Assembly (NCBI GenBank): GCA_030605565.1
Contig: JAUWIB010000089.1
Span: 12,197-76,196, forward strand
Reading direction: 5' to 3'
DNA: 64,000 bases
Source of the DNA: a bacterium
Lineage (GTDB): Bacteria > Zixibacteria > MSB-5A5 > GN15 > FEB-12
The position numbers and the translations under genes are program-made. The notes beneath the pieces are model-generated. The model ran no database searches, was not told the DNA's origin, and was given only the letters and a program-made list of their open reading frames with translations. Within the stretch, counting starts at the first letter, position 1, and the number at the start of each line of letters is the position of its first letter. Of this stretch, positions 30,301-64,000 are shown in pieces.

Positions 30301-33300
30301 GGCGTGAAGCAGACAGTGCCGTTAGCCATATTGACCTGAGCGCCGTTGACTGTTACGATAACAGACTCCAGCGCACCCTCCGGGTCGGACGCCGCAAAGC
30401 CACCGATGCAAACGTCACTCATGTCGCAGGTCCAGAGGGTGGTGTCACCGGGGCAGGTGACTATCGGCGGCTGATTGATTTCAAAGGTAACGGTGAATGT
30501 CTGGTCGCAGTAGGCACCGCATGAATCGCTGGCGCGAACTGTGACCGTGACTGTTTCGGCGCCTACTGGCGTGTAGCACCACTGGTCGCCGTTGATAGCG
30601 CCGGGACCGGAGATCAGTTCCCATCCGTAGAGGTTGCCGTCCGGGTCATCGGCTACGAGTGGCAGGCAGAGTTCCTGCGGGCCGCAGTTGAAGAGGGTGG
30701 TGTCGGTTGGCATCAGGCAAACCGGCTCGCTGTTGAGAATAACCTCGATGACGGCATCGCACCAACTGGTATCACCGCAATCATCAACGGCATAGAGAAT
30801 CATCGAGTTGGCGCCTTCGGTCGGCGCGAAGCAGACGCTGTTTTCGATGACCGGGTAGTCGCCGCCGTTGACGGTGACCCATATAGTGTCAAGATTCCCG
30901 TCCTCATCTATCGCGCCAAAACCCTCGACACAGATTTCATCATCCAGGTTGCATACGAAAACCGGTTCGAGGAGATCGACACAGGTAACCGCCGGTGGTG
31001 CGTTCAGGTCGAACGTTACGGTGAAGCTGCTTTCACAGGTAGCGCCGCATTCATCGGTGCACTGGATTGTGACGGTGATAGTCTCATCGCCGGACGGAGT
31101 GTAAGTCCAGAGTCCATTGATGAGTTGTCCCGGACCGCTGACGACTGAACAACCGGTCAGGTTGCCGTCGATGTCGTCGGCACTAATCGGCAAGCTTACT
31201 TCGGCCAAATCACATTGGAAAATCGTAGTGTCGTTCGGTGTGTTGCAGGTCGGCGGAGTATTCGGCAGAATCGGGACAACCGACTGACACTGGTCCTGAG
31301 CGCCGCAGCTATCAATTGCTGTCACCACAATGATATTGTCACCGGCCATCGGCGTGAAACAAATCTGTCCTTGATCCCATGTGACCGGCACTCCGTTGGC
31401 GGTAACAGTAACGCTGGCCAGATTTCCGTTGGCATCAGAGACCAGGAAGTTATCCAGGCAAATCTCGGAGAGATCGCAGACCAATACAGGATCAGGGAAG
31501 TCGGGACAGGCGACTGTCGGCGGCTGGTTCATCTCCAGCGTTACGGTGAATGTCTGGTCGCAGTATGCGCCGCACGAATCCAGAGCGCGCACGGTGACAG
31601 CTAATTGTTCCGCCTTATCTCCGCCATAGCACCACTGGTCACCGTTAAGGTAGCCGGGACCGGAGATGAGATCCCATCGGTCAAAGTTTCCATCGCCATC
31701 GCCGGCCGTCAGCGGAAGGCAGATTTCGATCAAGTCGCACAGGAATAGTGTAGTGTCGTTCGGACCTTCGCAGACCGGCTCTGAGTTGAGGGTAACATCA
31801 ATAACTGCACTGCAGATGCTCATGGCGCCGCAACTGTCGGTCGCCAATAGCTGAACTTCATTGAAACCCTCTATCGGCGGGAAGCAGATGGAACCATCAC
31901 TAAGTGGAGTCGACTCGCCATTGGCTATGGCAATTACGGACTCAAGATTGCCGTCCTCGTCAGTAGCTGCGAAACCGCTGAGGCTGAGGCAGAGTTCTTC
32001 AAGGTTGCACACCAGAATCGGATCGAAGGTGTCAGGACAGGTTACCACGGGATGTGCGTTTAAATCAAAGTCGACCGTAAAGCTGCTCTCGCAGGTTGCG
32101 CCACAGTCGTCGGTGCACTGTATTGTGACAGTAACAGTCTCATCACCGTCCGGAATATAGAACCAATTGCCGTCCACAATCTCGCCGGGACCGCTCGTGA
32201 TCGTGCAACCGATCAGGTTGTCGTCAACGTCCACGCCCGACACCGGCAACGAGATGCCCACCGCACCACAGTAGAAGATACTCGTGTCGTTGGGGACATC
32301 ACAGACAGGAGCCTCGTTGAAGAGCACGGTCACGAATATCTCATCGGCATCCTCACCGCCGCAGTCATCAACCGCCGTCACCACGACCTGATACGTACCG
32401 GCGGTGTCGGCGGTGAAGCAGACTTGTCCGGTGGCGGCGTTATAGATGCCACCGTCGACTTGGATGTTTGATATATTGTTATTAGCGTCGCTGATGCCGA
32501 CCGGCAGGCAAATAGCGCTCGGACTACACAGCATCATAGTCGTATCCGGCGGCAACAGCACCAGCGGGTCAACGTTACATTCGACCGTCACCGTGAACTC
32601 ACAGGTGTAAGTGCTGCATGGCGTGTGCACCATGATCTGGATGTTGTTCTGATTGGAACACTCAGTGTAAAAACAGACCGAATGCGTGGCGTCGTCGTAC
32701 CAGGTGTTGAGTCCCAGGACGTCAACAGTGATATCATCCGACCGGGGAATGCCGCTCAACGGGAGACAGATGGTATCCTGCACGCAGACAGACAGGGTAG
32801 TGTCATTAGGACATTCGATGACGATATCCTGGTCGGTCATAACGGTGAGGTTGATAGTAGTCGAAGCGGACTCTCCGCATTCATCAGTGGCCGTCACGAC
32901 TATTTGGTAGTTGCCCGCGGCGTAGGGTGTGAAACAGACCAGTCCGTTATCGTAGTAACCCTGACTGGTAGTAATTTCGACAATATTCTGGTCGGCATCA
33001 TTGATATCAACCGGCAGACAGATTGCCTGCGGGAAGCACAGGTAGAAGGAAGTATCAGCGACCGCGCTCACTGTCGGCGCCTGGTTGATCGACACCGTGA
33101 TATCCATCGTGTCCGCAGCCACCAGACCACAGGTGTCGGTGACCTCGACGATCAAGTTGTACAGCCCGTCACCTTCGGGTGTAAAACAGACCTGGCCGGT
33201 CTGAACGTCGTAAGCGCCGAGATTAGTTGTCAGCGATCCGTACTCGGCGATAGTAGTAACGTCCACGCAAATCGATTCCCCCCCGCAAAGAAGGGTATCG

Positions 33301-49514: not shown

Positions 49515-52460
49515 ATGAATCTTTCCTCACCAAAGATCAGTTTTGATCATCGGCTGCTGGCGATTGAAGAGCAATTTCGCCAGAGGAAGTATCAACACTC
49601 GGCGCGCGAGTTACGCCAACTAGGCGAGCACGAGTTTGAACCGCGCGCGCATGAAGTTGGTCTGTTTCTGTTGCTGTCTGCTGACGGCAGCTTCTCTGAG
49701 GGTAACTACAAGAGAGCGGTAGAAGATGGGCTTCGGGCGGCCAAAATTCTGGCCGGATTCCCGCTGAATCGACGATATGGCAGAGTACAGTTAGTGCTTT
49801 CTAAAGCCTACCTAATGCTCGGTGATCTGAAGAATGCCGAAATGAGGGGTCGTGACGCTGTAGCGGCCTACCGAAGGGCCAACGAAATGGATGGCCAGGT
49901 GGATTCGTTCAACCAGTTGGCTGGTATCGCATACTTGCGCTGTGATTACGCTGCGGTCGTCGGGTTTCTTGAGAATGCACTGGCTATGACCGGCGACAAT
50001 CCGCGCAAAGTGGCGCAGTTGACCGGTAACCTTGGTCGTACTCGCATTCGCACCGGGCAGTGGGCTCAGGCCGAACTGGACCTGAGCGGCTCGGTGAAAT
50101 ACAGCCATGACAACCATGAGGAGATCTCGGAGGCAATGAATCTGCTGTCGCTGGGACTTCTTCAGGTGCACCGTCGCCAGTTCGTGGTGGCCCAACGTAG
50201 TCTTGACGCGGCGTTAGAAATCGTTAACCGGCTCGACCTGAAGTATGAGCGCGTTGTCTATCTGGAGTACTCCGGTGAGTTGGCCTTCGAGAGAGGGGAC
50301 ATGTTCAAGGCCAAGGCGATCCTCAGCGAGGCGTATCGCCACGGTCTCACTCTTTCGTCGTCGTCGTCGCTGGTATCTCAGTCGGGACGCCAGTTGGCCG
50401 ATGTAGAGTTGGCTCTCGACAATTTCGACGAAGCCATGAAATACGCCCAGATAGCGCTGGAGACAGCGCTGCAACTGGGGGAGAGACTGGAGATCGGTCT
50501 GTCGCGCGCTGTGATTGCGCGTGTTTTCACTGTCCAGGCGGATTTCGAGTCGGCCCTGGAACAAGGCCGGTTGGCGCTTGAAGTTCTCAGAGGGATTGGT
50601 GACCCGTACCAACTGGGGCGTACCCTGTTGGTGTTTTCAGATATCTGTCTGGCCGCCCAGACTGAGGAAAAGGATAAGATACGAGCGGCCCTTGATGAGG
50701 CCCACCGCATATTCAGGAGGTTGAAGCTCAACTACTGGATGAGTGAAGCTAACTTCAAGGCGGGTGTATTCGCCTGTCAGTGTGGCGAGTTGGCTGCTGG
50801 ATTCCGCAAGCTCAGCCGGGCTGAGAAGGGGTTCGCATCGTTGGGCGCCAACACCAGGGTTAAAGCGGTCGCAAACTACTTGCGCACTTTATCGGAGCAG
50901 GCCGTGGCTCTGTCGATCTCGGACGACAACGAATTCAAGATTTTCGGCAACCTGATCAGCCCGGACGAGTTGACCGATCTCCAATCGTCACAGATGGAGG
51001 CGATCCTGTCGGTCTTGTTGGAGAAGACAGGTGGTGAACGAGCACTGATTTACGTGCCGGGTTCTTCAGATAATCCGGTGATTGCCTCCTTCCCGCTCGA
51101 GGGTGGGCAGGCCAAACGATTCACTGGTAGTCTTGGCGGTCTGTTGGGCGAGGAGATTGCCGTTGACCGGCCCACCTTGCTTTTGGACTGCCGCCGCGAT
51201 CCCTTCATCAACGAACTATTCACGGATGTAGCTGATGTTGTGGCCAGTGTTATTGTTGTGCCTTTCAAAACCAGCGATGGCTCGGCTGGGTATCTCTATC
51301 TCGATCGATTGTCACAGGACAACTGTCTTAATCCGTTCAATCAGACACAACTGAATTTTGCGGTCGGCTTTTCCGATCTCATTGCGTTCAAATGGACCGA
51401 GATCCAGAAGAATAAGCTATTAGAGGACAACCGAAGGCTCAAGAGTCAATTGATGGAGGAAGCCGCCTTCCCGAACATCATCACCGGCAATCCCGAGATG
51501 CTGAGAATGCTGTCCCAGGTGAGGCAGGTGGTAGACTCCAACATTTCGCTTTCTATCGAGGGTGAGACCGGCTGTGGCAAAGATCTACTGGCCCGAGCCA
51601 TTCACTACAATTCAATTCGGAAGAACCATCGCTTCATCACGGTTAACTGTGCCGCTCTTCCGGAGTCACTTCTGGAGTCGGAGTTGTTCGGTTATCGCAA
51701 AGGGGCGTTTACGGGCGCCGACCGTGATAAGCCAGGCTTATTCGAGGAAGCCGACGGCGGCACCTTCTTCCTTGACGAAATAGCCGACATGCCGCTCAGT
51801 ATCCAGGCCAAGGTGTTGCGGATACTTGAGGAAAAAGAAATCGTTCGACTGGGTGAAACTACACCGCGTCAGGTCGATGTGCGCATCGTGTCGGCCACCA
51901 ACAAGGATCTGAAAGAACAGATGAGCGCCGGTCTGTTTCGACAGGATCTGTACTATCGGTTGTCCGCGATGACTTTCAGACTGCCGCCGTTGCGCGAACG
52001 TAGAGAAGATATTCTGTTATTGGTCGAACACTTCCTCGCTCCCACGGGCAGGAGATTGTCGCCGGAAGTGGTGAAGGCATTAGTGGATTACAATTGGCCG
52101 GGTAACGTGCGTGAACTCGACAATGAAATCAAGAAGCTGGTGCTGTTGTCCGGTGATGATGAGGAAATCACCTCCCATCTCCTGTCGAGCAAGATTGGCG
52201 AACAGTCTTCTGTTGCTAACGGAGGCAATGGTGACGGCCGGGCGGCTGCGGCGCCTCCGGATGTTATTGAGTTCAACGAACGGTTTGGCCTTTACGACTA
52301 CCTGGCCGACCATGAAAAGACTTTCATCCTGAAGGCTTTGATGGCCAAACGCGGCGTCAAGAAACACGCTGCCGCATTCTTGAATATCCCCGAATCGACC
52401 TTGCGTCTCAAGATCAAGCAGTACGATATCGACCTCGGCCAATTCAAACGTCCTTCCTGA
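49515..52460 (+). CDS. Sigma54-dependent transcriptional activator with N-terminal TPR-like and GAF-like sensor regions
   Basis: The AAA+ core has GETGCGKDLLARAIH, ESELFGYRKGAFTGA and FFLDEIADMP. The C-terminal Fis-type HTH reads AAAFLNIPESTLRLKIKQY. About 450 aa of helical repeats and a GAF-like block (VVPFKTSDGSAGYLYLDR) precede it. There is no receiver domain. Confidence 0.9.
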   Translation: MNLSSPKISFDHRLLAIEEQFRQRKYQHSARELRQLGEHEFEPRAHEVGLFLLLSADGSFSEGNYKRAVEDGLRAAKILAGFPLNRRYGRVQLVLSKAYLMLGDLKNAEMRGRDAVAAYRRANEMDGQVDSFNQLAGIAYLRCDYAAVVGFLENALAMTGDNPRKVAQLTGNLGRTRIRTGQWAQAELDLSGSVKYSHDNHEEISEAMNLLSLGLLQVHRRQFVVAQRSLDAALEIVNRLDLKYERVVYLEYSGELAFERGDMFKAKAILSEAYRHGLTLSSSSSLVSQSGRQLADVELALDNFDEAMKYAQIALETALQLGERLEIGLSRAVIARVFTVQADFESALEQGRLALEVLRGIGDPYQLGRTLLVFSDICLAAQTEEKDKIRAALDEAHRIFRRLKLNYWMSEANFKAGVFACQCGELAAGFRKLSRAEKGFASLGANTRVKAVANYLRTLSEQAVALSISDDNEFKIFGNLISPDELTDLQSSQMEAILSVLLEKTGGERALIYVPGSSDNPVIASFPLEGGQAKRFTGSLGGLLGEEIAVDRPTLLLDCRRDPFINELFTDVADVVASVIVVPFKTSDGSAGYLYLDRLSQDNCLNPFNQTQLNFAVGFSDLIAFKWTEIQKNKLLEDNRRLKSQLMEEAAFPNIITGNPEMLRMLSQVRQVVDSNISLSIEGETGCGKDLLARAIHYNSIRKNHRFITVNCAALPESLLESELFGYRKGAFTGADRDKPGLFEEADGGTFFLDEIADMPLSIQAKVLRILEEKEIVRLGETTPRQVDVRIVSATNKDLKEQMSAGLFRQDLYYRLSAMTFRLPPLRERREDILLLVEHFLAPTGRRLSPEVVKALVDYNWPGNVRELDNEIKKLVLLSGDDEEITSHLLSSKIGEQSSVANGGNGDGRAAAAPPDVIEFNERFGLYDYLADHEKTFILKALMAKRGVKKHAAAFLNIPESTLRLKIKQYDIDLGQFKRPS

Positions 52461-52605
52461 CAGTTAACGGCAGTCGCCCTGGGGTTGTCTCATAAGCTCG
52501 TGGTCCGCGTACGTCCTTGTGCGCCGGCCTTTGGATGCCGGCGCGGTAGACTCAGACGTCCACCGCGCACAGGGCGAGTGTCATTTCGGCGAAAGCCGGA
52601 ATCCG

Positions 52606-52712
52606 GTAGGTCAGGATCCTTGTGATCCTGACAGGCAAGGTAGCAAGCTACTGTTGGCGTCAGGTTCCAAGGATGTAGAGGATCATGAGATCCTTGGAAC
52701 CTGACCTACAAG
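52606..52712. repeat. Two adjacent family B hairpins; the second is the inverse of 35694-35748 with a 17-nt loop insertion
   Basis: The first is gtaggtcaggatccttgtgatcctgac. The second is ggcaaggtagcaagctactgttggcgtcaggttccaagga[tgtagaggatcatgaga]tccttggaacctgacctacaag. Confidence 0.85.
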
Positions 52713-52761
52713 ATGTCGAAACCGCCCTTCGGCTGCGCTCAAGACAGGCTTGGTTTCGACC
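52706..52761. repeat. Family C element
   Basis: ctacaagatgtcgaaaccgcccttcggctgcgctcaagacaggcttggtttcgacc. Confidence 0.75.
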
Positions 52762-52894
52762 TATGATTCCTCCGCTCAGGGTGAGGTGTGGAGCGCAATG
52801 TTGAAGGCGGTCATGGTTCGCGGCAGTATAATCTGTTACTACCAACACACATAACGTGACTGAGTCGCAGGCAAATTTTTTTCTCAACTAACAG

Positions 52895-52922
52895 TTGACA
52901 TTCGGTTGGATTCTGGTATAAT
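52895..52922 (+). promoter_or_regulatory. Near-consensus sigma70-type promoter with extended -10
   Basis: TTGACA (52895-52900), a 16-nt spacer, then TGgTATAAT (TATAAT at 52917-52922). An A/T-rich tract (aaattttttt) lies upstream. Confidence 0.5.
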
Positions 52923-52928
52923 AACGGT

Positions 52929-53006
52929 TGACGAGGACTTGGGTAGATCGTCCACTGGTAGCTCCCTAGCCCCCTCTACCATCGATCTACCCGCCCTCTT
53001 TTTTTT
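52929..53006 (+). ncRNA. Candidate ~75-nt small RNA: one extended hairpin plus U8 tail
   Basis: Paired segments are GAGG(52933-36)/CCTC(52995-98), GGGTAGATCG(52941-50)/CGATCTACCC(52983-92) and TGGTAG(52956-61)/CTACCA(52976-81). The apical loop is C-rich (ctccctagccccct). T8 lies at 52999-53006. There is no ORF with an RBS. Confidence 0.3.
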
Positions 53007-53126
53007 GTGCCCCCAGTTCTTCTGTCTCCCCAACCCGGCCGCATCACAGAGCCGACCGTCGTCTATGGCTGAACTCAACATAACAGCAGTGACTGTCAGA
53101 CCGTGTCAGTCAAAGTTGTTCGCATC

Positions 53127-53148
53127 CGGCAGATGTGGGCATCTGCCG
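53127..53148. repeat. Family A palindrome, one mismatch
   Basis: cggcagatgtgggcatctgccg, with gggc in place of ggac. Confidence 0.85.
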
Positions 53149-53435
53149 TTCACCTAGTTTTTTGTGAGGCGGGATCCTTGCGATCCTGCCGAAACGTCTG
53201 TTTTCCCACAACGCCTTAACTCGAATCGCAGGGTCACAATCCGCCTGGGCGGATCAGGACCCTGCGAAACGGCTTTATGACACAGTCTGGCAGTCGAAGG
53301 GTGGCGTACCCTGTGGGCGGATACTGCGTACCCTGACTTCACAACCGAAGTGCAACAACCTACTAAGGGTTAATCAGACTCGCATTCGGCTGAGCCGGGC
53401 TTGCGTTGTGCCCCGATCATGTGTAATATGTTGCC

Positions 53436-54242
53436 ATGTCCAGGCTGCTCTTCTATCGTCAGTTCGCGTGTGACCCGCATTACAACATGGCCGTCGATGA
53501 GTGGTTGTTTGATCGGGCGCGCAATGCCCCGGGGTCGTTGTTCGTTCGCTTGTACAGTTGGGCTGAGGGAGCGATCACTTTCGGAGTCAATCAGGACATG
53601 GAGCGTGCCTTCGATTCTTCCCAACTGAACGGTACGCCGGTGATACGTCGCGTAACCGGCGGGCGTGCTCTCTATCATGACTGCTCTGAGCTAACCTACA
53701 GCATTGCCGTCAATCTCTCCGGGTGGCATGGTTACGAATGGGCGACGGGTAGGTCGAGTTTCTACCGCGCCGTGGCTGAGGCTCTGGCCGAATTCGTGAG
53801 AGTCATGGGCAAAGACGCAGGCTACTGTCGCCGTTCGGCTGAGAGTAATTCGTGTTCTGATTTTTTCCACAAGGCGGCCTGCTTTGCGTCGGTTTCACGT
53901 TATGAGGTGTTGGCCGAAGGCGGGAAGATTGTGGCTTCGGCGGCGCGCCGAATTGAGGATACCATCTTGCAGCACGGATCGATCAAACTTGACGGCGTGG
54001 CGCAGCATCCGGCGCTCTACTACCCGGCGGTTGACGGCCTCTCGCAATCGGTTTGTTTGCAGCCGCTTAGCGGCCCGCGTTGGGAACTGGCGTGTGATAT
54101 CTTCCCCAATGTGCTTGGTCGCCATCTCGGCATTGATCTGCGGCGGGGTGAGTTCGACCTTCAGGAGTCGGCCGAGTTGGAAGGCCGAGCCAGGTTGGTT
54201 AGTGAAACAGCTCTTAGGCAGAGGATTTTATTAAACAGTTGA
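53436..54242 (+). CDS. Lipoate/octanoate-protein ligase family protein (BPL_LplA_LipB)
   Basis: NMAVDEWLF, VRLYSWAEGAITFG, IRRVTGGRALYHD and KIVASAARRIEDTILQHGSIKLD are present. Confidence 0.8.
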   Translation: MSRLLFYRQFACDPHYNMAVDEWLFDRARNAPGSLFVRLYSWAEGAITFGVNQDMERAFDSSQLNGTPVIRRVTGGRALYHDCSELTYSIAVNLSGWHGYEWATGRSSFYRAVAEALAEFVRVMGKDAGYCRRSAESNSCSDFFHKAACFASVSRYEVLAEGGKIVASAARRIEDTILQHGSIKLDGVAQHPALYYPAVDGLSQSVCLQPLSGPRWELACDIFPNVLGRHLGIDLRRGEFDLQESAELEGRARLVSETALRQRILLNS

Positions 54243-54310: not shown

Positions 54311-54340
54311 TTGACTTTGCCGCCGTCGATGAGCTATTAT
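54311..54340 (+). promoter_or_regulatory. Candidate sigma70-type promoter of the TBDR-like/PorV-like/lipoprotein operon
   Basis: TTGACT (54311-16), an 18-nt spacer, then TATTAT (54335-40). It leaves a leader of about 190 nt. Confidence 0.35.
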
Positions 54341-54533
54341 AGTTGCTTGAAAGCGGATTCCGGTATGGACAAGATGCCCCGGGAATCCTTAGAGTTTGGA
54401 GAGTTCAGGCGGACCGGTAGGTAACGGATCAGGACTGAATCGTTCGATTCTCTCACTGCACAGGGTCGGCTTGGAATCTGATATTATTGGTTGGGAAACA
54501 AGTAGAGTCGTCTCTGCATATATCGTAGGAGGA

Positions 54534-57500
54534 ATGGTAATGCCTTTCGGGCCCAGGAAGTTTTTGATTTCGTTCGTGGTCCTGGTGCTGGCAATAGCGA
54601 TCGGGCCAGTGAACCTTTACGCAGCGGCTGTGGGACAGATTAAGGGGACTATCACTGACAAGGAAACCGGCGAGTTGATTCCCGGTGCATCGGTCATGGT
54701 TGTCGGCCTTGAGGGGGTCGGTGCAATGACCGACTTCGATGGCAAGTTTATTATCCGCCGCATGGAGCCGGGCAAGTACACCGTGCGCATCACGCACCTC
54801 AAGTACAACACTTTGGAGGTCACCGATGTCGAAGTCAAGTCTGATCTGACTGTTGAGGTGACCCAGGCGCTGGAGAAGAAGATCGCTGAGTTAGACAAAA
54901 CCATCACTGTCAGAGGTGAACGGGACATTATCGAGAAATTCCAGACCTCCAACCAGGTCACCATCTCCAAAGAACAGATTATGTCTCAGCCGGTCACTTC
55001 GGTGGATGAGTTGCTGACGCAGGTGGCCGGTGTGGTCACCAACGCCTCCGGTGAGATATTCATCCGAGGTGGTCGCGCCGGTGAGGTTGCGTACATCGTT
55101 GATGGTGTGCCGATCGGCGATCCGCTGGGTGGTCTGGGAGAGATGGGCGCCAATCTTTCGTTGGTTTCCGGTTCGATTCAGGAGTTCACGGTGATTAAGG
55201 ACGGGTTTGATCCGGAGTACGGCAACGCCCTTTCCGGTATCGTCAGGATCACTACGCAAACCGGATCGAGAGACAACACCCGGATTAACATGCAGTTCAT
55301 CACCGATGATTTCGGCGACAAGTCCCTTAACAAGTATTCACGTAACCACGATTACGTGCGATTTTCCGTAAGCGGTCCGGACCCGATTTTCAAGAACAAG
55401 ATTCTTCCGGCTTTGGGTTTGAGCTATATGGAGGATAAGGAGCTTACGTACTACTTCTACGGTGAGGTGGACAAGGATGACGGTATCCATCAATACGAAT
55501 CTTACGACACGCCGATAACTCGTCGGAACTACGGATCGTTCAACCTTCTTGGGTTTGACATTCCGGAGCGTAAGAACAACAAGTACTCCTATGTGAGCAA
55601 CCTCAGGTTCCGCCCCTTGCAGAATTTGAGGTTTATCCTTTCGTACAGGAACACTCAGACGCGGTGGACTCATTTCAATTGGAACTATCGTTACTCACCT
55701 AACACTGCACCGGTGCAGTCGAATCGCTGGGAGATATTGTCGCTGGAGGTTTCGCAGTCTGTCTCCCGTAACATTAGCTACGAGGCGGTTCTGTCCTATT
55801 CGAAGAACAGCGTGACCCGTAAGCCGGGTGATCCCAACAATCCGGGGCATGGACTGGACCCCGATGAATTCCGTCTGAACTCGGAGTGGGAGGACTTTGA
55901 TGATCGTAACCACAATGGTGTTTATGATGCCCCGGAGCCGATCATCAACCTGTTCCCGGACACGGCTATCTACGGATTCGATTTCACCGGTCCCGCCTAT
56001 ACTTTCGGTGAGGAGTCGCTCTGGGAAATCAACCAGCAGGGCGGTTTCGCCTTTCCATCTGATTTCCGTTTCAATGACAACGGTATTATCGACAACCTTG
56101 AGGGTGAGCCGTTTATCGACCTGAATGGGAACGGTGTTTGGGACCAGGGAGATTTCCTCAGGGATAAGAACGGTAATGGGTTGCTCGACGATGATCGTAT
56201 CAGCTACATCAACAACCGTCTGCCCGAGCCGTACATTGATGGTGATTCGATCGTAGGTGAGGATTTCAACGATATTAACGGCAACAACATCTATGATCCC
56301 GGCATCGACCTGTTTATCATGTCGGTCGGTGATGATAACCAGGACCTCAACGACAATGGTAAGCACGACGGTCCGCTGGATCGCTGGGAGCCGCGTATTC
56401 CGTACATCGACCGGAACGGCGACGGTATCTACAACCCTCCTAATGAGCGTTACGATCAAGGCGAACCGTTTACCGATGTGAACGGCAACGGTCGCTATGA
56501 TTACGGTGGTTCTTCGAATTTCCTGAACCCGGGCAATTACGACGAGACAGCAATGTGGCACTATCACAACACGAACACCTATCGGTTGGAGGCCAAGGTG
56601 TTCTGGCAGTTGGGCTCTCACGAGCTCAAGGGTGGTGTTGCGATGCAGGCCAACGAATACGACTACGAAGAAATCGAAAAGCCATACTATCCTTACAGTG
56701 GACGCGACGACGGTGGGCCGTACCCGGGGCGCGGCTCTTTCCGGGATATGTTCCATTATGAGCCGTACCAGGGTACGGTGTACTTCCGCGATAAGCTGGA
56801 GTACGGATCGATGATCGCGTCGCTGGGTTTCCGGTGGGATTTCTTCCTGCAGGATCGCTATGGTTTGGTGGAAGTGGCCAAGCAGGATGATCTGGGCTCC
56901 GGTGTGATCTTGGGTGACCGTCAAAAGTTCTCACCGCGTATTGGTTTCTCCTATCCGATCTCCGACAAGGCCAAAATCCACTTCAACTACGGGCACTTCT
57001 TCCAGCTTCCTTTACTTGAGCGGATGTACCGTCGGAATACTTCCTCGGTGGCTCAGAACGTTGTGATCGGTAACTATAACCTCGATTATCAAAAGACCAT
57101 TCAGTATTCGTTTGGTGTCAAGTACGCGATGTCTGAGAACTATTCGCTGGATGCCCAGGGCTATTTCAAGGACGAATTTGATAAGATTAACTCTGCGCAG
57201 GTTCGGGTTGGTGGTTTGACGCGTCAGCAGTATCAGAACAGTGACTATGGCCGCAGCCGTGGCTTTGAATTCACTCTCGAAAAGCGAGGCGGCGGTTATG
57301 TCAATGGTCAGTTGAGTTACACCTATGCTTTTGCTTTCGGCAAGGCGTCGCAGACTAACCAGAACTACATGAGCGACTTCGAACTCTCACGTGAGCCTCT
57401 CTCCGAGTCGGCGCTCAATAACGATATTCGGCACCGTATTAGTGGCAATATTCAGGTGTTTGTACCCAGGACGGTCAAACCCCGCCTGTTCGGTTTGCCC

Positions 57501-57881
57501 ATCCCCAACGGCTGGACGCTGGCTCTCAATTGTATAATCGAGAGTGGGCGTCCTTTTACTCCTGACCGGTCGTACCCGAACCTGACGTTGACAACCGGTG
57601 AGGACATCCAAACCAACTCGATGCGCAAGCCGGGTATTTTCAATATCGACGTCCGTTTCGCCAAGGATTTCGAGTTCATCGGGATCGATTACAGTGTGAT
57701 TATGTGGGTAGAGAATATCTTTGACAGCCGCAATGTCAATACAGTTTACAACAAAACTGGTCGACCTGATACCCGGCAGAATCAGAGTCAGGTCATCAAG
57801 GGAGGCACGCCCTACGACCTAAACCCATACAACTGGGATTACGGTCGGCAGATCCGCCTGGGACTTGAGGTGAACCTGTAA
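54534..57881 (+). CDS. TonB-dependent-receptor-like outer membrane protein (CarboxypepD_reg, plug and barrel) with a large Asp-rich loop insertion
   Basis: It has a signal peptide and a CarboxypepD_reg-like domain (IKGTITDKETGELIPGASVMVVG...GKYTVRITHLKY). The plug reads FIRGGRAGEVAYIVDGVPIGDP and DPEYGNALSGIVRITT. A long barrel follows. The start is ATG at 54534 or 54540, after TAGGAGG. The track ORF starts at 54396. Confidence 0.85.
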   Translation: MVMPFGPRKFLISFVVLVLAIAIGPVNLYAAAVGQIKGTITDKETGELIPGASVMVVGLEGVGAMTDFDGKFIIRRMEPGKYTVRITHLKYNTLEVTDVEVKSDLTVEVTQALEKKIAELDKTITVRGERDIIEKFQTSNQVTISKEQIMSQPVTSVDELLTQVAGVVTNASGEIFIRGGRAGEVAYIVDGVPIGDPLGGLGEMGANLSLVSGSIQEFTVIKDGFDPEYGNALSGIVRITTQTGSRDNTRINMQFITDDFGDKSLNKYSRNHDYVRFSVSGPDPIFKNKILPALGLSYMEDKELTYYFYGEVDKDDGIHQYESYDTPITRRNYGSFNLLGFDIPERKNNKYSYVSNLRFRPLQNLRFILSYRNTQTRWTHFNWNYRYSPNTAPVQSNRWEILSLEVSQSVSRNISYEAVLSYSKNSVTRKPGDPNNPGHGLDPDEFRLNSEWEDFDDRNHNGVYDAPEPIINLFPDTAIYGFDFTGPAYTFGEESLWEINQQGGFAFPSDFRFNDNGIIDNLEGEPFIDLNGNGVWDQGDFLRDKNGNGLLDDDRISYINNRLPEPYIDGDSIVGEDFNDINGNNIYDPGIDLFIMSVGDDNQDLNDNGKHDGPLDRWEPRIPYIDRNGDGIYNPPNERYDQGEPFTDVNGNGRYDYGGSSNFLNPGNYDETAMWHYHNTNTYRLEAKVFWQLGSHELKGGVAMQANEYDYEEIEKPYYPYSGRDDGGPYPGRGSFRDMFHYEPYQGTVYFRDKLEYGSMIASLGFRWDFFLQDRYGLVEVAKQDDLGSGVILGDRQKFSPRIGFSYPISDKAKIHFNYGHFFQLPLLERMYRRNTSSVAQNVVIGNYNLDYQKTIQYSFGVKYAMSENYSLDAQGYFKDEFDKINSAQVRVGGLTRQQYQNSDYGRSRGFEFTLEKRGGGYVNGQLSYTYAFAFGKASQTNQNYMSDFELSREPLSESALNNDIRHRISGNIQVFVPRTVKPRLFGLPIPNGWTLALNCIIESGRPFTPDRSYPNLTLTTGEDIQTNSMRKPGIFNIDVRFAKDFEFIGIDYSVIMWVENIFDSRNVNTVYNKTGRPDTRQNQSQVIKGGTPYDLNPYNWDYGRQIRLGLEVNL

Positions 57882-57904
57882 GCAGCTCAATGTGAAGAAT
57901 AGAT

Positions 57905-58924
57905 ATGAATGACACAATAGATGAGGATGAAATGCTTCTGAAACACAATAGATCGCTGCCACTGAGACCGCCCAGGTATTTAAGAACAGCGCTTCTCGGA
58001 CTGGTATTGCTTTGTATTGGCGTCGCCTGGATGCCTCACAACGCCTTGGCTCAGGCCAAAGTAGGCACTACCGGCGCCCAGTTCCTGGAGCTTGGCGTCT
58101 CGGCGCGGGCGATGGGTATGGCGGAGGCCTTTACAGCGGTCACGGACGACATCATGGCGGTATACTACAACCCGGCCGGTCTTACCTCGCTCTATGGCCG
58201 TGAGGTGGCATTCACTTACATCGACATGCCGGCCGATGTCGGCTACGGTTTCGGTGCTATTGGTCTGCCGCTGGAATCAATCGGCGGTGTCCTGGGGATA
58301 AGCGCGTACGGCTTGTCCTCCGGTGAAATGATCGAACGCACTTGGAGCAAGGGCCAACAAGAGGGTACCGGGCGGACTTTCGGATGGAACGACTTCGCTA
58401 TGGGTGTCAGCTATGGCCGGTATCTGACCGACCGGTTTTCGGTGGGTTTCACGGTCAAGTTTGTCGGTCAATTCGTTCACGACTACAGCGCCAGCGGTTG
58501 GTGTGCTGATGTCGGCACTATGTACGACACCGGCCACCGCGGCTTCAGAATCGCTATGATGATCAGTAATTTCGGGCCGGATATGACTATGATCAGCCAG
58601 TCCTATCCGTTACCGATCAACTTCAGGTTTGGTGGTTGCATCAACCTGGTTGAACAGGCGGATCACCTGGTGACCTTCGCGGCCGAGGGCTCCCACCCCT
58701 CGGACAACCTCGAGAAGTACAACACCGGTCTGGAATATACCTTTCGGGACCGTTTCTCACTGCGCGCGGGGCGCCGCTTCAACTATGACGAAGACGGCTT
58801 CACGGCCGGCGGCGGTCTTGCCTTGCCGTTTGGAGAAGAGAGTGAGATTCGTATCGATTACGCCTTCCAGGATTTCGGAATCCTGACGCAGGTTCACCGT
58901 TTCAGTATGGCCTTTGCGTTTTAG
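57905..58924 (+). CDS. PorV/PorQ-family outer membrane beta-barrel protein
   Basis: After the signal peptide comes GTTGAQFLELGVSARAMGMAEAFTAVTDDIMAVYYNPAGL, the signature N-terminal block of PorV/PorQ-type barrels. The protein ends in ...FSMAFAF. Confidence 0.7.
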   Translation: MNDTIDEDEMLLKHNRSLPLRPPRYLRTALLGLVLLCIGVAWMPHNALAQAKVGTTGAQFLELGVSARAMGMAEAFTAVTDDIMAVYYNPAGLTSLYGREVAFTYIDMPADVGYGFGAIGLPLESIGGVLGISAYGLSSGEMIERTWSKGQQEGTGRTFGWNDFAMGVSYGRYLTDRFSVGFTVKFVGQFVHDYSASGWCADVGTMYDTGHRGFRIAMMISNFGPDMTMISQSYPLPINFRFGGCINLVEQADHLVTFAAEGSHPSDNLEKYNTGLEYTFRDRFSLRAGRRFNYDEDGFTAGGGLALPFGEESEIRIDYAFQDFGILTQVHRFSMAFAF

Positions 58925-58944
58925 ACAGAGAGTACCAGATAATT

Positions 58945-61086
58945 ATGAGGAATCAAATCAACAAAGCAAGAATAGCAGCAGTGCTGCTGGCGTTGGCCGC
59001 AGTGCTCATAGTGTCGGTAGTACTCACTGTCGGGTGTACAAAACGATTGGACGGCGAGGTTACCGCAAACGAGAAACCAGTCGTCTACTTTGTCAATATC
59101 CCACCCGAAGGACACAGGTTTTCACGTAACCCGGAGGTTCACTGGGTCGGCACCGACCGCGACGGGTTGATCGCCTATTTCCGTTACCATGTGGTTACGG
59201 CGGGTGGTTTGGGTGGACTAGACCCGATGGATTACATCTCGACGGTTCCAAACAGTGCTTGGATCAGGCTTGATGTCGACCCGAAGGGGCCGGACCCGAT
59301 GACGTCGAATATCGTCTCAATGTCGGCTGATCTCACTGATCCGGTACTAACGTACGTGGATCAATACGTCTTCCTGCAGGCGTATGATGAGGAAGGGCTC
59401 GGTTCCGATATCATTTACCGGCTGTTCTCTCGCAACGACCATCCGCCGACCTCATTTGTCTCCGGTTTCTGGCCCACTGATACACCGTTTGTGAATTCGA
59501 TAAATCCGGGTGGGATTATCACTGGTGTCAAGTTGCGCTGGCAAGGCGATGATCCGATTGACTACCCTAGTGATCCGCCACCGTTTGAATTCGACTGGCG
59601 ACTCTACGGTCCGTACTTCACTGAGGAAATGCAGGTCATCCGAGATTCCTTTATGACGTGTGTTTATGTCACTAACGACGGGAGTATATATCGAGTTGGT
59701 GACACGGTGATCCGGTGCGATACTTTCTTTGTTGATGGCGGTCTCGAAGAGGAATGTGATACTCTGATCGTGATTGATTCCACTTTCGATACGCCTTTTG
59801 GCGCTACGGAACCGTACATGAGAGTCGACGATCCGGACTTCCTTGCCTCACCGTATAACAAAATCCAGCAATCCGAAGGCTGGGTCAGCAACGAGGCTGA
59901 TACCTTGTGGAACGTATTTGAGGGCTTTCACTCCGATACGACGGTTCAGATGTCGTTCGTGTTCTGGCTTAGATCACGTGACGATGCTCTGGTTCCCGAC
60001 TTGGTGCCGTACTTTTTGGAATTCCCCGTCATCAATCCCCGCTACGAGCGCGATATTGTCGTCCTTGACTTTAGCAAAATTTTGCCGGCAGGCTTGAATG
60101 ATCCCATCAAGCGTGACACCGTCAAGGCCTACTGGAAGACAACCATCGACGCCTGGGCGGCCAACACCGGTCGAGAAATCGTCTTTGATACCAACGCCAT
60201 CACCGAGGGTTATCTGGCAGACATAGGAGTCAGCGCCGACTTTATCTGTATGACTAACAGTCGTCTGGACCCAGGGGCGCCGATCTCTGAACTCTTGAAA
60301 CACAAAGTGATAATCCTCTATGATGATGTGCTGGGTGTCCCACTGGACCCTCAGTGGACTACAATCTACAAAGCCATAGATGCCGGCATCAACATTTGGG
60401 TGACCGGACGCACTTTAATTATCTCTGGAGGCACAGCACAGGGGCCGACGGGTACCGTACCACCGTTCAATTACAGGCGCTACTTCGGCGTCGACTCCAT
60501 AGGTCACACCGGATGGGCCAGTTACGTGCCGGGACTCGGTGGGAATCCACCACTCGGCCTTTATCAGGATTTCATCGGAACGTTTTCCACTAAACCGGGT
60601 GAGTGGCCTGATCTGGCAATCGATACGGGGTATTTGCACACTCGTTACAAGTGGGACCTGTATGGCCAGATCTCCTACTGGAACGAGGATTGCCCGAGTC
60701 TGCCGGAAGTTGATTGGTGCGTACGGTCGTTCGGTACCGAAATCCTCTATAAGTACAAGTCCTGCTACGGGGCATCACATCCTATGGGTGGGAATCATAT
60801 TTTACACGGTCGCCCGGTAGCGCATCGGTTGGCCACCAGTCTGTTCAAGACGGTGCATTTCAAGTTTACGCCGCTATCGATCGACTCAGCCACAATGCAG
60901 GTGGTGGTCGATTCGGTACTGGAATGGTTGTATGATCCGACGCTCGGTGGAGGTAACGGTCAGGTATCTGAAAACCGTTATCCGGATGCTGCGGTGAAAG
61001 TATCGCTTTCTGAGGCGCGCCGCAACTACGATGCGCGGTGCGAGGAATACGAGAAGAGGCGGCAGGAGGCGATAATTATCGATTGA
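58945..61086 (+). CDS. Hypothetical 713-aa lipoprotein
   Basis: It has a lipobox (VVLTVGCTK), lies 20 nt after the PorV-like gene and is followed by an intrinsic terminator. I did not recognise a family. The C-terminal half has an alternating beta-alpha pattern (DIVVLDFSK...KVIILYDDV...INIWVTGR). Confidence 0.6.
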   Translation: MRNQINKARIAAVLLALAAVLIVSVVLTVGCTKRLDGEVTANEKPVVYFVNIPPEGHRFSRNPEVHWVGTDRDGLIAYFRYHVVTAGGLGGLDPMDYISTVPNSAWIRLDVDPKGPDPMTSNIVSMSADLTDPVLTYVDQYVFLQAYDEEGLGSDIIYRLFSRNDHPPTSFVSGFWPTDTPFVNSINPGGIITGVKLRWQGDDPIDYPSDPPPFEFDWRLYGPYFTEEMQVIRDSFMTCVYVTNDGSIYRVGDTVIRCDTFFVDGGLEEECDTLIVIDSTFDTPFGATEPYMRVDDPDFLASPYNKIQQSEGWVSNEADTLWNVFEGFHSDTTVQMSFVFWLRSRDDALVPDLVPYFLEFPVINPRYERDIVVLDFSKILPAGLNDPIKRDTVKAYWKTTIDAWAANTGREIVFDTNAITEGYLADIGVSADFICMTNSRLDPGAPISELLKHKVIILYDDVLGVPLDPQWTTIYKAIDAGINIWVTGRTLIISGGTAQGPTGTVPPFNYRRYFGVDSIGHTGWASYVPGLGGNPPLGLYQDFIGTFSTKPGEWPDLAIDTGYLHTRYKWDLYGQISYWNEDCPSLPEVDWCVRSFGTEILYKYKSCYGASHPMGGNHILHGRPVAHRLATSLFKTVHFKFTPLSIDSATMQVVVDSVLEWLYDPTLGGGNGQVSENRYPDAAVKVSLSEARRNYDARCEEYEKRRQEAIIID

Positions 61087-61130
61087 GATAGTAATCGTCG
61101 TAGAACGTCGCCATAAGTTTGGCACATACC

Positions 61131-61160
61131 ACGGGACCGAGTTACTCGGTCCCGTTTTTA
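61131..61160 (+). terminator. Rho-independent terminator after the lipoprotein gene
   Basis: ACGGGACCGAG-tta-CTCGGTCCCGT followed by TTTTATT. It overlaps the stop codon of the convergent GT39 gene. Confidence 0.6.
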
Positions 61161-63428
61161 TTGATTGAGTCGAGGGGTAAGCTGTCTTATCAACTCATTA
61201 GTGGGGAAACGTCGGGCGGCTATGATCATCACCGAATCCGCCGACTCTATCTGTCCGGTGTACCGGTAACCACCGGCCAGGTTTACCCAGGCCTCAACCA
61301 GATTCGAGTCGGCTGCAATTGCCTGCCGGTTGTGGCTGATTGCCAGATGATACTTTCCGGACAGGCCGGCCAACAGACCGAGGTGATAATGGGTGCGAGC
61401 TGTCTCGTGGCGTCGCCTCAAAAAGTGGTTGGGGAAATTTCGGTCAAAGGCGCCGTCGTCAGTCTCGATCGGCGGAGGCCGCGAATGTAACGCTCGTTGC
61501 AGCAGTGATTCGGCCTGGGCAGTGTCGCCGCGTCGAAGCAAGAGCAGGGCGGCATCGTTCAGCAGGTAGAGATCATTGTCGGTGCGCTCTGTGGCTTGTT
61601 CCACCCGGGTGACGAAGCTACCGGTCGCTATGCTGTCGATTCCGGCCAGGGCGCGCAGGTAGATCATGTTGGCGGTGACATCCCAGTCGGCCAGGGCCAG
61701 GGCCTTCTCGGCCTGGACAGCAGCTTCAGGGTAGCGACCGTTGATCAGGTGCAGCGAGGCCAGGTTGCTGTGTGTCTTGGGTCGATCGGGGTGCAGTTGG
61801 CGTTCTTGCTCGAGACAGAAAAGCGCTGAATCGGCTATCCCAAGCCGCAGATAACAAGCGCCGATGTTCAGGTTGGTCTCTGCCGGTGGAGGATCATACA
61901 TCCGAGCGGCCTGAAAGTAGCCGAGCGCACTCCGGAAGTCCCCTTTTGCGTAATAATGGATCCCTTTGGAAACGAAGTCCTGCGCCGGCGAACCGGGTGG
62001 AAGTTTCACCATCGGATACCACGAGAACGCCCAGACTGCAACAATGGCCAGCATCATGCCGGCGCCTCGCTTGATATCGGTGGCGAACAAATCCAGAACC
62101 GTCATCGCCCCCACGGCGGCCAGCACCGTCATGAAGGGCAGTACCGGTACGCGAAAGCGGCTGCTGAAAAAGAACAAGGCCATCGTCATCAGGTAGGTAA
62201 GTATCAACCCTATCAGCAGCCGCACACGGCTGCCTCCGTGACGCCATCCGACTAGAGCGCCCACTACAGCGAAGGCCAGTATGATCGAAAACGAGACGGG
62301 GTTGAGTCGCAGCAACGGCATGGCGGCGGAGAATAGTCCCAGGTCACGGTTGTTGGACACTTCACGGTCGCCGATGCTGAGATACAGTTTCTTGAGATAC
62401 AGTTTCACAAATGTACCGGGGTTCCGCACTATCCATTGGAATGCCTGCGATGTCCAATAATCCGAAACTTCGCCAGGTTTGAGACGTCGCGCCGATGCCT
62501 CCTCGGCTGCTCGTACCACCTGTTTGAGACGCCAGTTGTGACCCATCGGTTCCGGCATTCGGGCTGAGACGCCGTCGGCGATTTCATTATTGCCGATATA
62601 GAAATTGATCCCTCCCTGCGATGCTATCAAGACCGGATCATCCGCTACGTAGAGGTTGCGCACGAAGACAGGACCAATCACCAAAGCCAAACCGACGACG
62701 AACATCACCAGCCGCTTCAGGCGGACGACGGCATCACCGGACAAGAGCAGCAACCATGCAAATACCAGTCCAGCCCATACTAAGGCGGTCGGTCGCGTGA
62801 TAGCGGCGACGCCGGTTACCAGTCCGGCCAAAAGGAGAGTGCCCAGTTTTCGATTGTCCCGCCAGCGCCAGACGGTTAGCAATGATATCTGCAAAAGCAA
62901 CGTGAACAGCACGTCCAAAAGCAACTCGGCTTCAAAATAGAGGAAGACGGGGTTGATGCTCTGAACAGCCGCGGCCACAAGGCCGACTTGGTGCGAGAAT
63001 GCTTGTCGGCCAATGCGGTAAGTACAGTATATCGAAGCCAGTCCCACTACCAGGCCGAACAATCGGGCCGCCCACAACGAGGCGCCGAAGAAAGTGTAAA
63101 CCAGGCCCAGGACATAGATGTAGAAAGGCGCCCGGAAGTACGTCGTGTCTCCAAGAATGTTCCCGCCGGCCAGAGTTTCCGCCCAATGATGGTGGTAGTA
63201 GTTATCGACGGTCAACTGGTCCCACTGTGGCAGGTCGGAGTAATTTAGCAGGTAGAGAACCCGGATCACCGTGGCGAATATCAGCAGGGCGGGCAGGAAC
63301 CAGCGGCCTGCCACCGGCATGTCGGACCGTGAACTCATTTGCTCAATATAGACATTAGGTTTGTGGGGGGCGTGTAAAACTTTGCGATAAGAATCCGCCA
63401 AAACGGCAATCCATATCACATTATGCAA
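61158..63428 (-). CDS. GT39 (ArnT/PMT-like) membrane glycosyltransferase fused to C-terminal TPR repeats
   Basis: The N-terminal ~480 aa are polytopic (YFRAPFYIYVLGLVYTFFG, many TM segments). The C-terminal ~270 aa are TPR-like (YYAKGDFRSALGYFQAA, NLASLHLINGRYPEAA...). The likely start is internal, at MSSRSD (nt 63338). Confidence 0.75.
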   Translation of the reverse strand: MHNVIWIAVLADSYRKVLHAPHKPNVYIEQMSSRSDMPVAGRWFLPALLIFATVIRVLYLLNYSDLPQWDQLTVDNYYHHHWAETLAGGNILGDTTYFRAPFYIYVLGLVYTFFGASLWAARLFGLVVGLASIYCTYRIGRQAFSHQVGLVAAAVQSINPVFLYFEAELLLDVLFTLLLQISLLTVWRWRDNRKLGTLLLAGLVTGVAAITRPTALVWAGLVFAWLLLLSGDAVVRLKRLVMFVVGLALVIGPVFVRNLYVADDPVLIASQGGINFYIGNNEIADGVSARMPEPMGHNWRLKQVVRAAEEASARRLKPGEVSDYWTSQAFQWIVRNPGTFVKLYLKKLYLSIGDREVSNNRDLGLFSAAMPLLRLNPVSFSIILAFAVVGALVGWRHGGSRVRLLIGLILTYLMTMALFFFSSRFRVPVLPFMTVLAAVGAMTVLDLFATDIKRGAGMMLAIVAVWAFSWYPMVKLPPGSPAQDFVSKGIHYYAKGDFRSALGYFQAARMYDPPPAETNLNIGACYLRLGIADSALFCLEQERQLHPDRPKTHSNLASLHLINGRYPEAAVQAEKALALADWDVTANMIYLRALAGIDSIATGSFVTRVEQATERTDNDLYLLNDAALLLLRRGDTAQAESLLQRALHSRPPPIETDDGAFDRNFPNHFLRRRHETARTHYHLGLLAGLSGKYHLAISHNRQAIAADSNLVEAWVNLAGGYRYTGQIESADSVMIIAARRFPTNELIRQLTPRLNQ

Positions 63429-63625: not shown

Positions 63626-64000
63626 ATGAACATGAGACACTCATTAATAGCAATAGTCACCGCCGCCCTTCTGAGCACAATCTTCGGTAGCGTGGCTAAC
63701 GCCGATGTGTTGGCCCCGGGTTTACAGAACAGGCTCAATCCGGTCGTACAGACAGCCTCCGACAGTCCGATTTCGGTCGTGGTGTTCATCAATGCTGAAC
63801 CGCCGGTCTCGCTCGGTCTGCTCAAGGCTGCCCCGTCGCTGAGGCGTGATCAGAGAATCAAACTGTTGTTAGGCGAGTTGCTTCACCGGTCGCTGAAGTC
63901 GTGCGACCAGGTAGCTCAGTATCTGAATGAGAATTCATCCGCGCCGGTAACCCGCCATTGGATAGTACCGGCTTTTACAGCCACCCTAACAGTCCAGGCA
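63626..64000 (+). CDS. Secreted protein, 3' end outside window (possibly a peptidase propeptide-like N-terminus)
   Basis: AAGGAG lies 5 nt upstream of the ATG at 63626. The frame is open to the window end. The signal peptide is MNMRHSLIAIVTAALLSTIFGSVANA. The function guess is weak. Confidence 0.5.
   Translation, partial: MNMRHSLIAIVTAALLSTIFGSVANADVLAPGLQNRLNPVVQTASDSPISVVVFINAEPPVSLGLLKAAPSLRRDQRIKLLLGELLHRSLKSCDQVAQYLNENSSAPVTRHWIVPAFTATLTVQA

Follow-up and report, generated by a model that had tools for sequence, protein, structure and literature searches.

What might a bacterium gain from transcribing together a TonB-dependent transporter (TBDT), a β-barrel of the PorV/PorQ family and a large lipoprotein? 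The question is raised by a three-gene operon at positions 54311-61160 of a stretch of DNA of 64,000 nucleotides (nt), hereafter the window, from a bacterium of the phylum Zixibacteria (GTDB lineage Zixibacteria; MSB-5A5; GN15; FEB-12; GenBank assembly GCA_030605565.1, contig JAUWIB010000089.1, positions 12,197 to 76,196 of the forward strand). Barrels of the PorV family are carriers that partner the SprA translocon, or PorU and PorZ, of the T9SS (type IX secretion system), TBDTs are known for import, and PorF is the only TBDT-like component of the T9SS. Public annotation gives the products of the operon generic names only, and we infer that the operon encodes an undescribed complex. The answer that we favour, tentatively and at slightly less than even confidence, is that the trio would be a T9SS-linked complex for surface anchoring or cargo processing, built around a TonB-type barrel, and not a nutrient locus of the SusCD type.

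One transcription unit with conserved signals

The locus is a single transcription unit of three co-directional genes between a σ70-type promoter and a hairpin terminator. The initial annotation, which was made from the letters of the window alone, had proposed one operon, and this is borne out by the conservation of both signals and by the short gaps between the genes. The promoter (54311-54340, + strand) consists of a -35 box TTGACT, an 18-nt spacer and a -10 box TATTAT with an A-rich tract directly upstream, and agrees with the consensus at 10 of 12 positions. As a pattern it is weak, nine such sites being found where 6.2 are expected in shuffled sequences; the phylogenetic evidence for the predicted promoter, unlike the pattern match, is strong. 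CTTGAC at the -35 box is shared without change by all 16 orthologous upstream regions that were aligned, with GGAAAAA before it and a -10 box TAT(T/A)(T/A)T at the right distance after it, and it was found in 58 of the 59 distinct orthologous loci, mostly 200-270 nt 5' of the start codon. In 38 of these 59 loci a heptamer, AGTCTAT, also precedes the -35 box by about 45 nt.

The 5' leader of about 200 nt (54341-54539, + strand) has a conserved length, contains GGTTGG(GA) motifs and ends with the ribosome binding site GGAGG (54528-54532). Of the 59 distinct loci, 45 have the GGTTGG(GA) motif, which lies about 135-180 nt 5' of the gene 1 start codon. A search of the leader against Rfam gave nothing at E ≤ 1 save a spurious miRNA match within gene 1, which rules out a riboswitch or other known RNA there. 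Control by the σ54 activator that is encoded upstream was likewise ruled out, because no -24/-12 element lies 5' of gene 1 in the window; across about 60 loci, scattered weak matches to such an element were seen in six.

The unit is closed by an intrinsic terminator (61131-61160, + strand) between gene 3 and a convergent glycosyltransferase gene, with an 11-bp stem containing eight GC pairs (61131-61155) and then a T-run (TTTTTATT). Of 70 distinct orthologous loci, 56 have a strong hairpin followed by a T-run 3' of gene 3, with stem sequences that vary between loci, and the terminator identified at the outset is thus upheld. The gap of 20 nt between genes 2 and 3 also stood, whereas the one between genes 1 and 2 measures about 50 nt and not 23, because translation of gene 2 most likely starts at ATG 57932.

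A TonB-type barrel with a calcium-loop insertion

Gene 1 (54540-57881, + strand) encodes a predicted outer-membrane protein of 1113 amino acids (aa) that belongs to the TBDT family, comprising a signal peptide, a CarboxypepD_reg domain (aa 33-111), a TonB-box-like motif, a Plug domain (aa 137-233) and a β-barrel. Its start is ATG 54540, which stands behind GGAGG 54528-54532 and opens a typical signal peptide; the list of open reading frames (ORFs) had TTG 54396, and the orthologues, of 1102-1130 aa, all begin at the site equivalent to ATG 54540. The exact 1113-aa product occurs in public sequence collections. The layout of CarboxypepD_reg, plug and barrel that had been read from the translation was recovered by Pfam above cut-offs (CarboxypepD_reg, 59.7 bits; Plug, 42.7 bits, cut-off 23.9; OMP_b-brl_4, 43.7 bits, cut-off 30), and the Plug domain (PF07715) was detected in 19 of 19 orthologues and TonB_dep_Rec_b-barrel (PF00593) in 13 of 19. 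With a profile of the gene 1 family, the plug matches Cir, YncD and PqqU; among solved TBDT structures, matches were confined to the N-terminal domain and the plug, and no solved barrel was matched. The N-terminal domain is followed, ahead of the plug, by the TonB-box-like β-strand KTITVRG, of which variants such as ETITVRA and EVITVEG occur. Judged from these matches, gene 1 belongs to the TBDT family and is not of the SusC/RagA type, no SusC/RagA model being among its NCBIfam matches at E ≤ 0.01.

An insertion of about 220 aa in the barrel (about aa 441-664; 55860-56531, + strand) contains approximately eight D-x-N-G-N-G-x-x-D loops of the EF-hand/dockerin type. The Asp, Asn and Gly positions of these loops are invariant across 19 orthologues with overall identities of 52-81%, and a profile search gave a weak match to the EF-hand protein GCAP1. 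The insertion is presumably a surface-exposed Ca2+-binding domain, its exposure being suggested by the topology of TBDTs. To our knowledge, PorF (PG0534, UniProt Q7MWR1), which by its description is likewise an outer-membrane protein of the TonB-receptor-plug type, has not been described with a Ca-loop insertion of this kind.

A short barrel of the PorV/PorQ family

Gene 2 (57932-58924, + strand) encodes a 330-aa, FadL-like outer-membrane β-barrel that matches the PorV/PorQ family model of NCBIfam, and its exact product is on public record. The start is likely ATG 57932, which is preceded by GAGGA, and the conserved 'I-[ND]-E-D-x-M' of the orthologues is that ribosome binding site read as protein; ATG 57905 is possible but unlikely.

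Against the family model NF033709 the protein scores 197.8 bits, with a cut-off of 90 (residues 55-339, full model), and the orthologue in the divergent locus L085 scores 208.1 bits. Of the three equivalog models, PorQ (NF033711) is the best, with 95.5 bits and a cut-off of 220, followed by PorV (NF033710; 58.5 bits, cut-off 250) and PorV2 (55.6 bits, below cut-off). Pfam PorV was reached at 28.2 bits, barely over its cut-off of 27, and Pfam matches were solely to PorV and Toluene_X, while the sole sequence match in the PDB was PorV of F. johnsoniae (6h3i_F, E 3.5e-6), the chain of which has 402 aa compared with about 290 aa for the mature gene 2 product. The gene thus appears to encode a short 14-strand barrel that falls within the PorV/PorQ family but reaches the equivalog cut-off of neither PorV nor PorQ, and that scores nearer to PorQ than to PorV; the PorV/PorQ assignment of the initial annotation holds for the family and does not extend to either equivalog.

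A lipoprotein family restricted to the phylum

Gene 3 (58945-61086, + strand) encodes a 713-aa lipoprotein with its lipobox cysteine at position 31 (nt 59035-59037), which is invariant in 36 of 36 sequences. It had been set down as a lipoprotein of no recognised family, and indeed no match was obtained in Pfam or NCBIfam, nor to PDB sequences with a profile. Its AlphaFold2 model (predicted local distance difference test (pLDDT) 85.3, predicted template modelling score (pTM) 0.77) contains three β-sandwiches at aa ~46-375, for which Foldseek returned only generic arrays of immunoglobulin-like (Ig) or FN3 domains, and an α/β domain at aa ~376-665, which reached pLDDT 81 and pTM 0.85 when modelled alone. 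A C-terminal helix (aa 688-712) is conserved. Foldseek likens the α/β domain to domain B of GH42, to lin1909 and to the GIFT domain of IFT52, with TM-scores of about 0.35, and the label GATase1/GIFT-like is therefore to be read as a fold class only. An enzymatic role for the GATase1-like domain was ruled out, since it has no conserved Cys and its matches are non-catalytic versions. Membership in the SusD-like or another known nutrient-binding family was ruled out by the Pfam, NCBIfam and PDB profile searches; the predicted fold, Ig-like sandwiches plus an α/β domain, is also not the all-helical fold of SusD.

Gene 3 has full-length homologues, named 'hypothetical proteins', in metagenome-assembled genomes (MAGs) of Zixibacteria. 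A profile search of 1.84 billion representatives gave 554 matches, and 134 relatives came to light when one genome per species was scanned, each of them in a MAG of Zixibacteria or GN15 type, some of which carry placeholder taxonomic labels. By these searches gene 3 represents a new, phylum-restricted family. It may be added that MAGs with the operon among loci L015-L079 are often titled 'uncultured Ignavibacteriales', 'Calditrichota' or 'Acidoferrum', which are probably placeholder labels or reflect mis-binned contigs.

Conservation of the operon across Zixibacteria

The operon belongs to the core of Zixibacteria, where it occurs in single copy and in almost all of the genomes sampled, and genes 1, 2 and 3 are kept together in all of the approximately 90 loci with enough flanking sequence, so that the trio is syntenic across the phylum. 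The common gene order is σ54 activator, LplA-like protein, TBDT, PorV-like barrel, lipoprotein and a convergent PMT_2-TPR glycosyltransferase; past the glycosyltransferase there usually follows an S8 peptidase with a T9SS C-terminal domain (CTD) and, in many cases, a CTD-bearing M6 peptidase, with Fur-FeoAB next. The divergent locus L089 retains the TBDT, the PorV-like barrel and the lipoprotein despite an identity of about 28% in gene 3, with a β-helix gene and a further gene, X, between the TBDT and PorV-like genes, and it is stronger evidence than the collinear loci that the trio belongs together. The sequences of L085, L089 and L091 are cut within the TBDT gene.

The constraint on the individual genes was expressed as the median protein identity relative to locus L001. 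It is highest for the PorV-like protein (70.5%), followed by Fur (68%), the TBDT (64%), the σ54 activator (58%), the S8 peptidase (47%), the glycosyltransferase (45%) and the LplA-like protein (42%), and lowest for the lipoprotein (38%). By this measure the two barrels are conserved as strongly as the cytoplasmic Fur, which is unusual for surface proteins. Since this conservation includes the large, presumably surface-exposed insertion, the barrels would be parts of a machine more than a substrate-specific receptor.

The same pattern bears on the possibility that the operon serves TonB-dependent nutrient uptake, the main rival explanation, which we consider rather unlikely, though it deserves serious attention. 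The TBDT would then import a substrate caught by the surface lipoprotein with its Ig-like stalk and binding head, and the PorV-like barrel would just export or anchor the lipoprotein or admit a hydrophobic substrate, in an arrangement akin to RagAB/SusCD or Slam-TbpB-TbpA; the T9SS-secreted S8 and M6 peptidases encoded next door would supply peptides for import. This is consistent with the presence in gene 1 of a plug, a barrel and a TonB-box-like motif, with the names 'TonB-dependent receptor' or 'Fe transport receptor' given to it by public pipelines, with the architecture of the lipoprotein, with the secreted peptidases and Fur-FeoAB just downstream in many loci, and with L089, which adds a β-helix lipoprotein of a kind found in glycan-degrading loci. 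However, substrate-specific receptors are usually far less conserved than these barrels and the insertion, and no nutrient-responsive promoter element was found, that is, neither a σ54 site upstream of gene 1 nor a riboswitch in the leader.

SusCD and RagAB share with the operon a TBDT with an N-terminal extension of the CarboxypepD_reg type that is co-transcribed with a large lipoprotein, and RagAB shares the presence of secreted peptidases nearby, in its case the gingipains. Unlike these systems, the operon has no SusD-like partner by fold or family and no SusC/RagA signature, it contains an extra PorV-family barrel, and its surface regions are far more conserved. Clusters of Slam (type 11 secretion) combine a TonB-dependent receptor, a surface lipoprotein and a 14-strand barrel, and the same three-part gene content suggests a similar logic, whereby the small barrel would display a lipoprotein that works with the TBDT. 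Unlike Slam, however, the gene 2 product is PorV/FadL-like and has neither a DUF560 nor a TPR domain in Pfam, it is found in another phylum, and it lacks the context of host iron proteins.

Very high, phylum-wide conservation in single copy would also suit an envelope-structural complex apart from the T9SS, such as a Ca2+-dependent anchor of a surface layer, or an accessory to outer-membrane assembly resembling BamG with surface lipoproteins. To this we give only a slim chance. It would make sense of the invariant array of Ca-binding loops in gene 1, and the window is rich in envelope genes, encoding a lipid A acyltransferase, a heptosyltransferase, a MacAB-TolC-like pump and an ArnT-like glycosyltransferase. 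A precedent exists in BamG and BamH of the β-barrel assembly machinery (BAM) of Bacteroidota, where a 14-strand barrel of the FadL family lies against a larger barrel and its loops bind a surface lipoprotein, the genes for BamG2 and BamH2 being neighbours (PMC12578637). In the present operon, by contrast, the large barrel is a plug-containing TBDT and not BamA, no BamA or POTRA component is encoded, gene 2 bears the PorV/PorQ signature and is not best described as a generic FadL, and gene 3 is unrelated to BamH by sequence search. In addition, a cassette with a CTD protein in relatives of the operon indicates the T9SS.

A protein with a T9SS-type C-terminal domain beside the PorV-like gene

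This cassette is found in the divergent loci L085, L088, L089, L090 and L091, in which gene X, encoding 844-994 aa, lies between the TBDT and PorV-like genes, directly upstream of the latter. Single copies are present in L088 (5388-8015), L089 (5823-8807) and L090 (6106-8976), whereas in L085 (2894-9968) and L091 (2862-9967) the pair of X and PorV-like gene is tandemly duplicated as a unit; in L085 the PorV-like copies are 98.7% identical and the X copies 69%. Relocated X genes occur in two ordinary Zixibacteria loci, L025 (1690-4311) and L029 (373-3018), between the σ54 activator and the LplA-like gene. The nutrient-uptake alternative leaves a CTD protein that is inserted beside the PorV-like gene and co-duplicated with it unexplained.

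All X proteins end in the conserved sequence ...FPNPY...I(F/Y)TLDGDLVR...WDLISRNTQ.V.SGIYLY...GK.VIIK, which resembles a type-A T9SS CTD. It scores 17.3 bits on TIGR04183, below threshold, and also matches the CTD ends of the PorZ and PorU models at sub-threshold level. A lineage-specific hidden Markov model (HMM) of the CTD, built from the neighbouring S8 peptidases, matches five of the eight X proteins tested, those of L085, L088 and L091, at their very C-terminus with E values of 7e-8 to 3e-6 in a small set, while the X proteins of L089, L090 and L025 fall short of E ≤ 10. For comparison, the same HMM gives about E 1e-30 for the S8 and M6 peptidases and E 1e-29 for a giant protein encoded in the window. 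Searches of X against PDB and Pfam found nothing besides the sub-threshold CTD, the only other recognisable part being an FN3-like segment, and X would thus be a new protein family.

The arrangement recalls PorQ-PorZ and PorV-PorU of the T9SS attachment complex of P. gingivalis, in that a small FadL-like barrel of the PorV/PorQ family, with PorQ as its best equivalog model, is encoded in the relatives next to a large protein with a specialised T9SS-type CTD. There are clear differences: gene 2 scores far under the cut-offs for both PorQ and PorV, beyond its CTD X resembles neither PorZ nor PorU in sequence and it is absent from the operon in the window, and the Bacteroidota PorQ and PorV pairs lack, at that position, the TBDT and lipoprotein with which gene 2 is co-transcribed. 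SprB and SprF follow the same plan, in which a large protein carrying a specialised CTD is encoded next to a small barrel of its own.

Predicted CTD-bearing cargo of a T9SS is encoded at the level of the organism. S8 and M6 peptidases with CTDs adjoin the operon in most loci, and their orthologues match TIGR04183. In the window itself, an Ig/PKD-rich protein of 3616 aa (24312-35162, - strand) ends in a Por_Secre_tail domain (30.6 bits, cut-off 27). The initial annotation had pointed to this giant CTD protein, about 20 kb away, as cargo; the protein is real and lies 19 kb upstream of the operon, and nothing ties the trio specifically to it. As a specific partner of the trio it was dropped, only distance being in its favour, and it lies outside the conserved block in other loci. 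Its CTD is very similar to that of the S8 and M6 peptidases. No paper linking Zixibacteria with the T9SS was present in the literature searched.

The secreted peptidases next door also raise the possibility of a TBDT that works in reverse, as an exporter resembling Oar of Myxococcus xanthus, a large TBDT with an N-terminal domain of the CarboxypepD_reg type that is reportedly required for secretion of the protease PopC. The barrel would expose at the surface, or release, the lipoprotein, X or the peptidases, with the PorV-like barrel as carrier. The order of CarboxypepD_reg, plug and barrel together with the OMP_b-brl_4 match is the one described for Oar-type proteins. PorV-family proteins carry exported proteins (PMC10994853). 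We nevertheless regard export as very unlikely. Secretion that depends on a TBDT has been seen experimentally in a single case, Oar is not known to have a PorV-like or lipoprotein partner, and the neighbouring peptidases have standard T9SS CTDs, which indicates the T9SS as their route.

A possible role in type IX secretion

A T9SS-linked role in anchoring or cargo processing is favoured in the light of three precedents. Holding CTD proteins at the outer membrane is the characterised job of the PorV family, the members of which act as carriers of exported proteins (PMC10994853). In BamG-BamH, a FadL-type barrel docks a surface lipoprotein beside a larger barrel (PMC12578637). PorF of P. gingivalis is a predicted TonB-receptor-plug protein that is needed for normal T9SS output, and the ΔporF mutant groups with ΔporQ and ΔporZ (PMC12704123).

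From these precedents and the gene content we infer a physical complex, its topology, its substrate, the direction of transport and a dependence on the T9SS, which might be pictured as follows. The three gene products would be subunits of one outer-membrane complex, of which the first is a plug and barrel with a periplasmic CarboxypepD_reg extension and the Ca-loop insertion, and the third consists of three Ig-like spacers, a non-catalytic GATase1/GIFT-like head and a C-terminal helix. The PorQ/PorV-like barrel would hold a partner protein at the outer membrane, as its characterised relatives do. In the four-gene relatives this partner would be X, a protein of about 850 aa with a dedicated CTD, and in the three-gene form it would be the lipoprotein, or CTD proteins encoded nearby. 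The TonB-type barrel alongside would give gated, energy-coupled passage. The whole would bear a loose likeness to PorF together with PorQ-PorZ in P. gingivalis. The further-reaching view that Zixibacteria and their relatives possess a T9SS-associated machine, in which a TonB-energised barrel, a PorQ-like carrier, a CTD protein and the lipoprotein release, process or anchor secreted proteins, appears distinctly unlikely to us at present.

Several observations weigh against a link to the T9SS. Gene 2 is below the cut-off of every T9SS equivalog (PorV, PorQ and PorV2), and the NCBIfam and Pfam CTD matches of X are under curated thresholds. The operon in the window is without X, and there is no homologue of X in the window or, for most Zixibacteria loci, at a distance of up to 10 kb from the operon. 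No sprA, porU, porZ, porK-N, TonB or ExbBD gene was found within the 64-kb window. Gene 1 appears to bear every sequence hallmark of an importer, including the plug and the TonB-box-like strand, and the predicted layout of gene 3, an Ig-like stalk with a globular head, would also fit surface lipoproteins that bind nutrients. Finally, the whole neighbourhood of about 20 kb, from the σ54 enhancer-binding protein to Feo, is collinear across the phylum. Because of this the synteny of the trio alone is weak functional evidence, and the adjacency of the CTD peptidases may therefore be inherited gene order and not functional linkage.

The initial annotation had named three findings that would speak against it: loss of synteny of the trio in related genomes, failure of gene 2 in PorV/PorQ profile searches, and a match of the lipoprotein to a nutrient-binding family. 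None of them was made. Its suggestion of cargo handling in connection with the T9SS has gained indirect support, from the pair of CTD protein and PorV-like barrel in the relatives and from the S8 and M6 neighbours with CTDs.

Neighbouring genes and other features of the window

The gene that converges on the operon (61158-63428, - strand) encodes, according to Pfam, a membrane glycosyltransferase of the PMT_2 (ArnT/GT39-like) family with fused TPR repeats; it adjoins the operon in nearly all loci and is missing in L088 and L090. It is followed by the 5' end of an S8 peptidase gene (63626-64000, + strand), which is cut by the end of the window and whose full-length orthologues carry a FlgD_ig/Por_Secre_tail T9SS CTD. 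Both genes are given as context only. Directly upstream of the operon lies a block with a TPR-containing σ54 enhancer-binding protein (49515-52460, + strand) and a short LplA/LipB-like protein that has the catalytic domain only (53436-54242, + strand). These two genes precede the operon in most loci with upstream flank, and the LplA-like gene does so also in the distant loci L087, L088 and L090.

The gap of 1 kb between the two upstream genes (52461-53435) is non-coding and contains several GC-rich inverted repeats with GGATCC-containing arms, for example CAGGATCCTTGTGATCCTGAC and GGGATCCTTGCGATCCTGCC. It also contains a candidate small RNA (52895-53010, + strand), for which a perfect promoter, TTGACA-17-TATAAT, lies at 52895-52922. 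The putative transcript of about 80 nt would fold into a long hairpin (-27.6 kcal/mol, z = -4.5) and has eight consecutive U at its end. Its body is 100% identical in three related loci, in which the promoter spacer and the flanks vary, and no match was found in Rfam.

Near the other end of the window, an ORF for a restriction endonuclease of the NotI family (629-1534, + strand) adjoins an ORF (1524-2384, - strand) with a weak match to Dam-type methyltransferases. Together (629-2384) they are probably a restriction-modification pair.

Implications

A TBDT, a PorQ-like barrel and a lipoprotein, joined in relatives by a CTD protein, are co-transcribed, co-conserved and partly co-duplicated. If the operon is indeed linked to the T9SS, this would offer a concrete and predictable complex for the way in which TBDTs and PorV-family barrels cooperate, as PorF may do with PorQ and PorZ. 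If a TonB-energised machine of this kind were to exist, it would provide both a genetic and a structural handle on the requirement for PorF in type IX secretion, and it would mean that a second source of energy feeds secretion at the outer membrane. If, on the other hand, the operon were to encode an uptake system, it would be a third architecture of TBDT and lipoprotein beside SusCD and Slam-TbpBA, and the complex would still be among the most conserved surface structures of an uncultured phylum.

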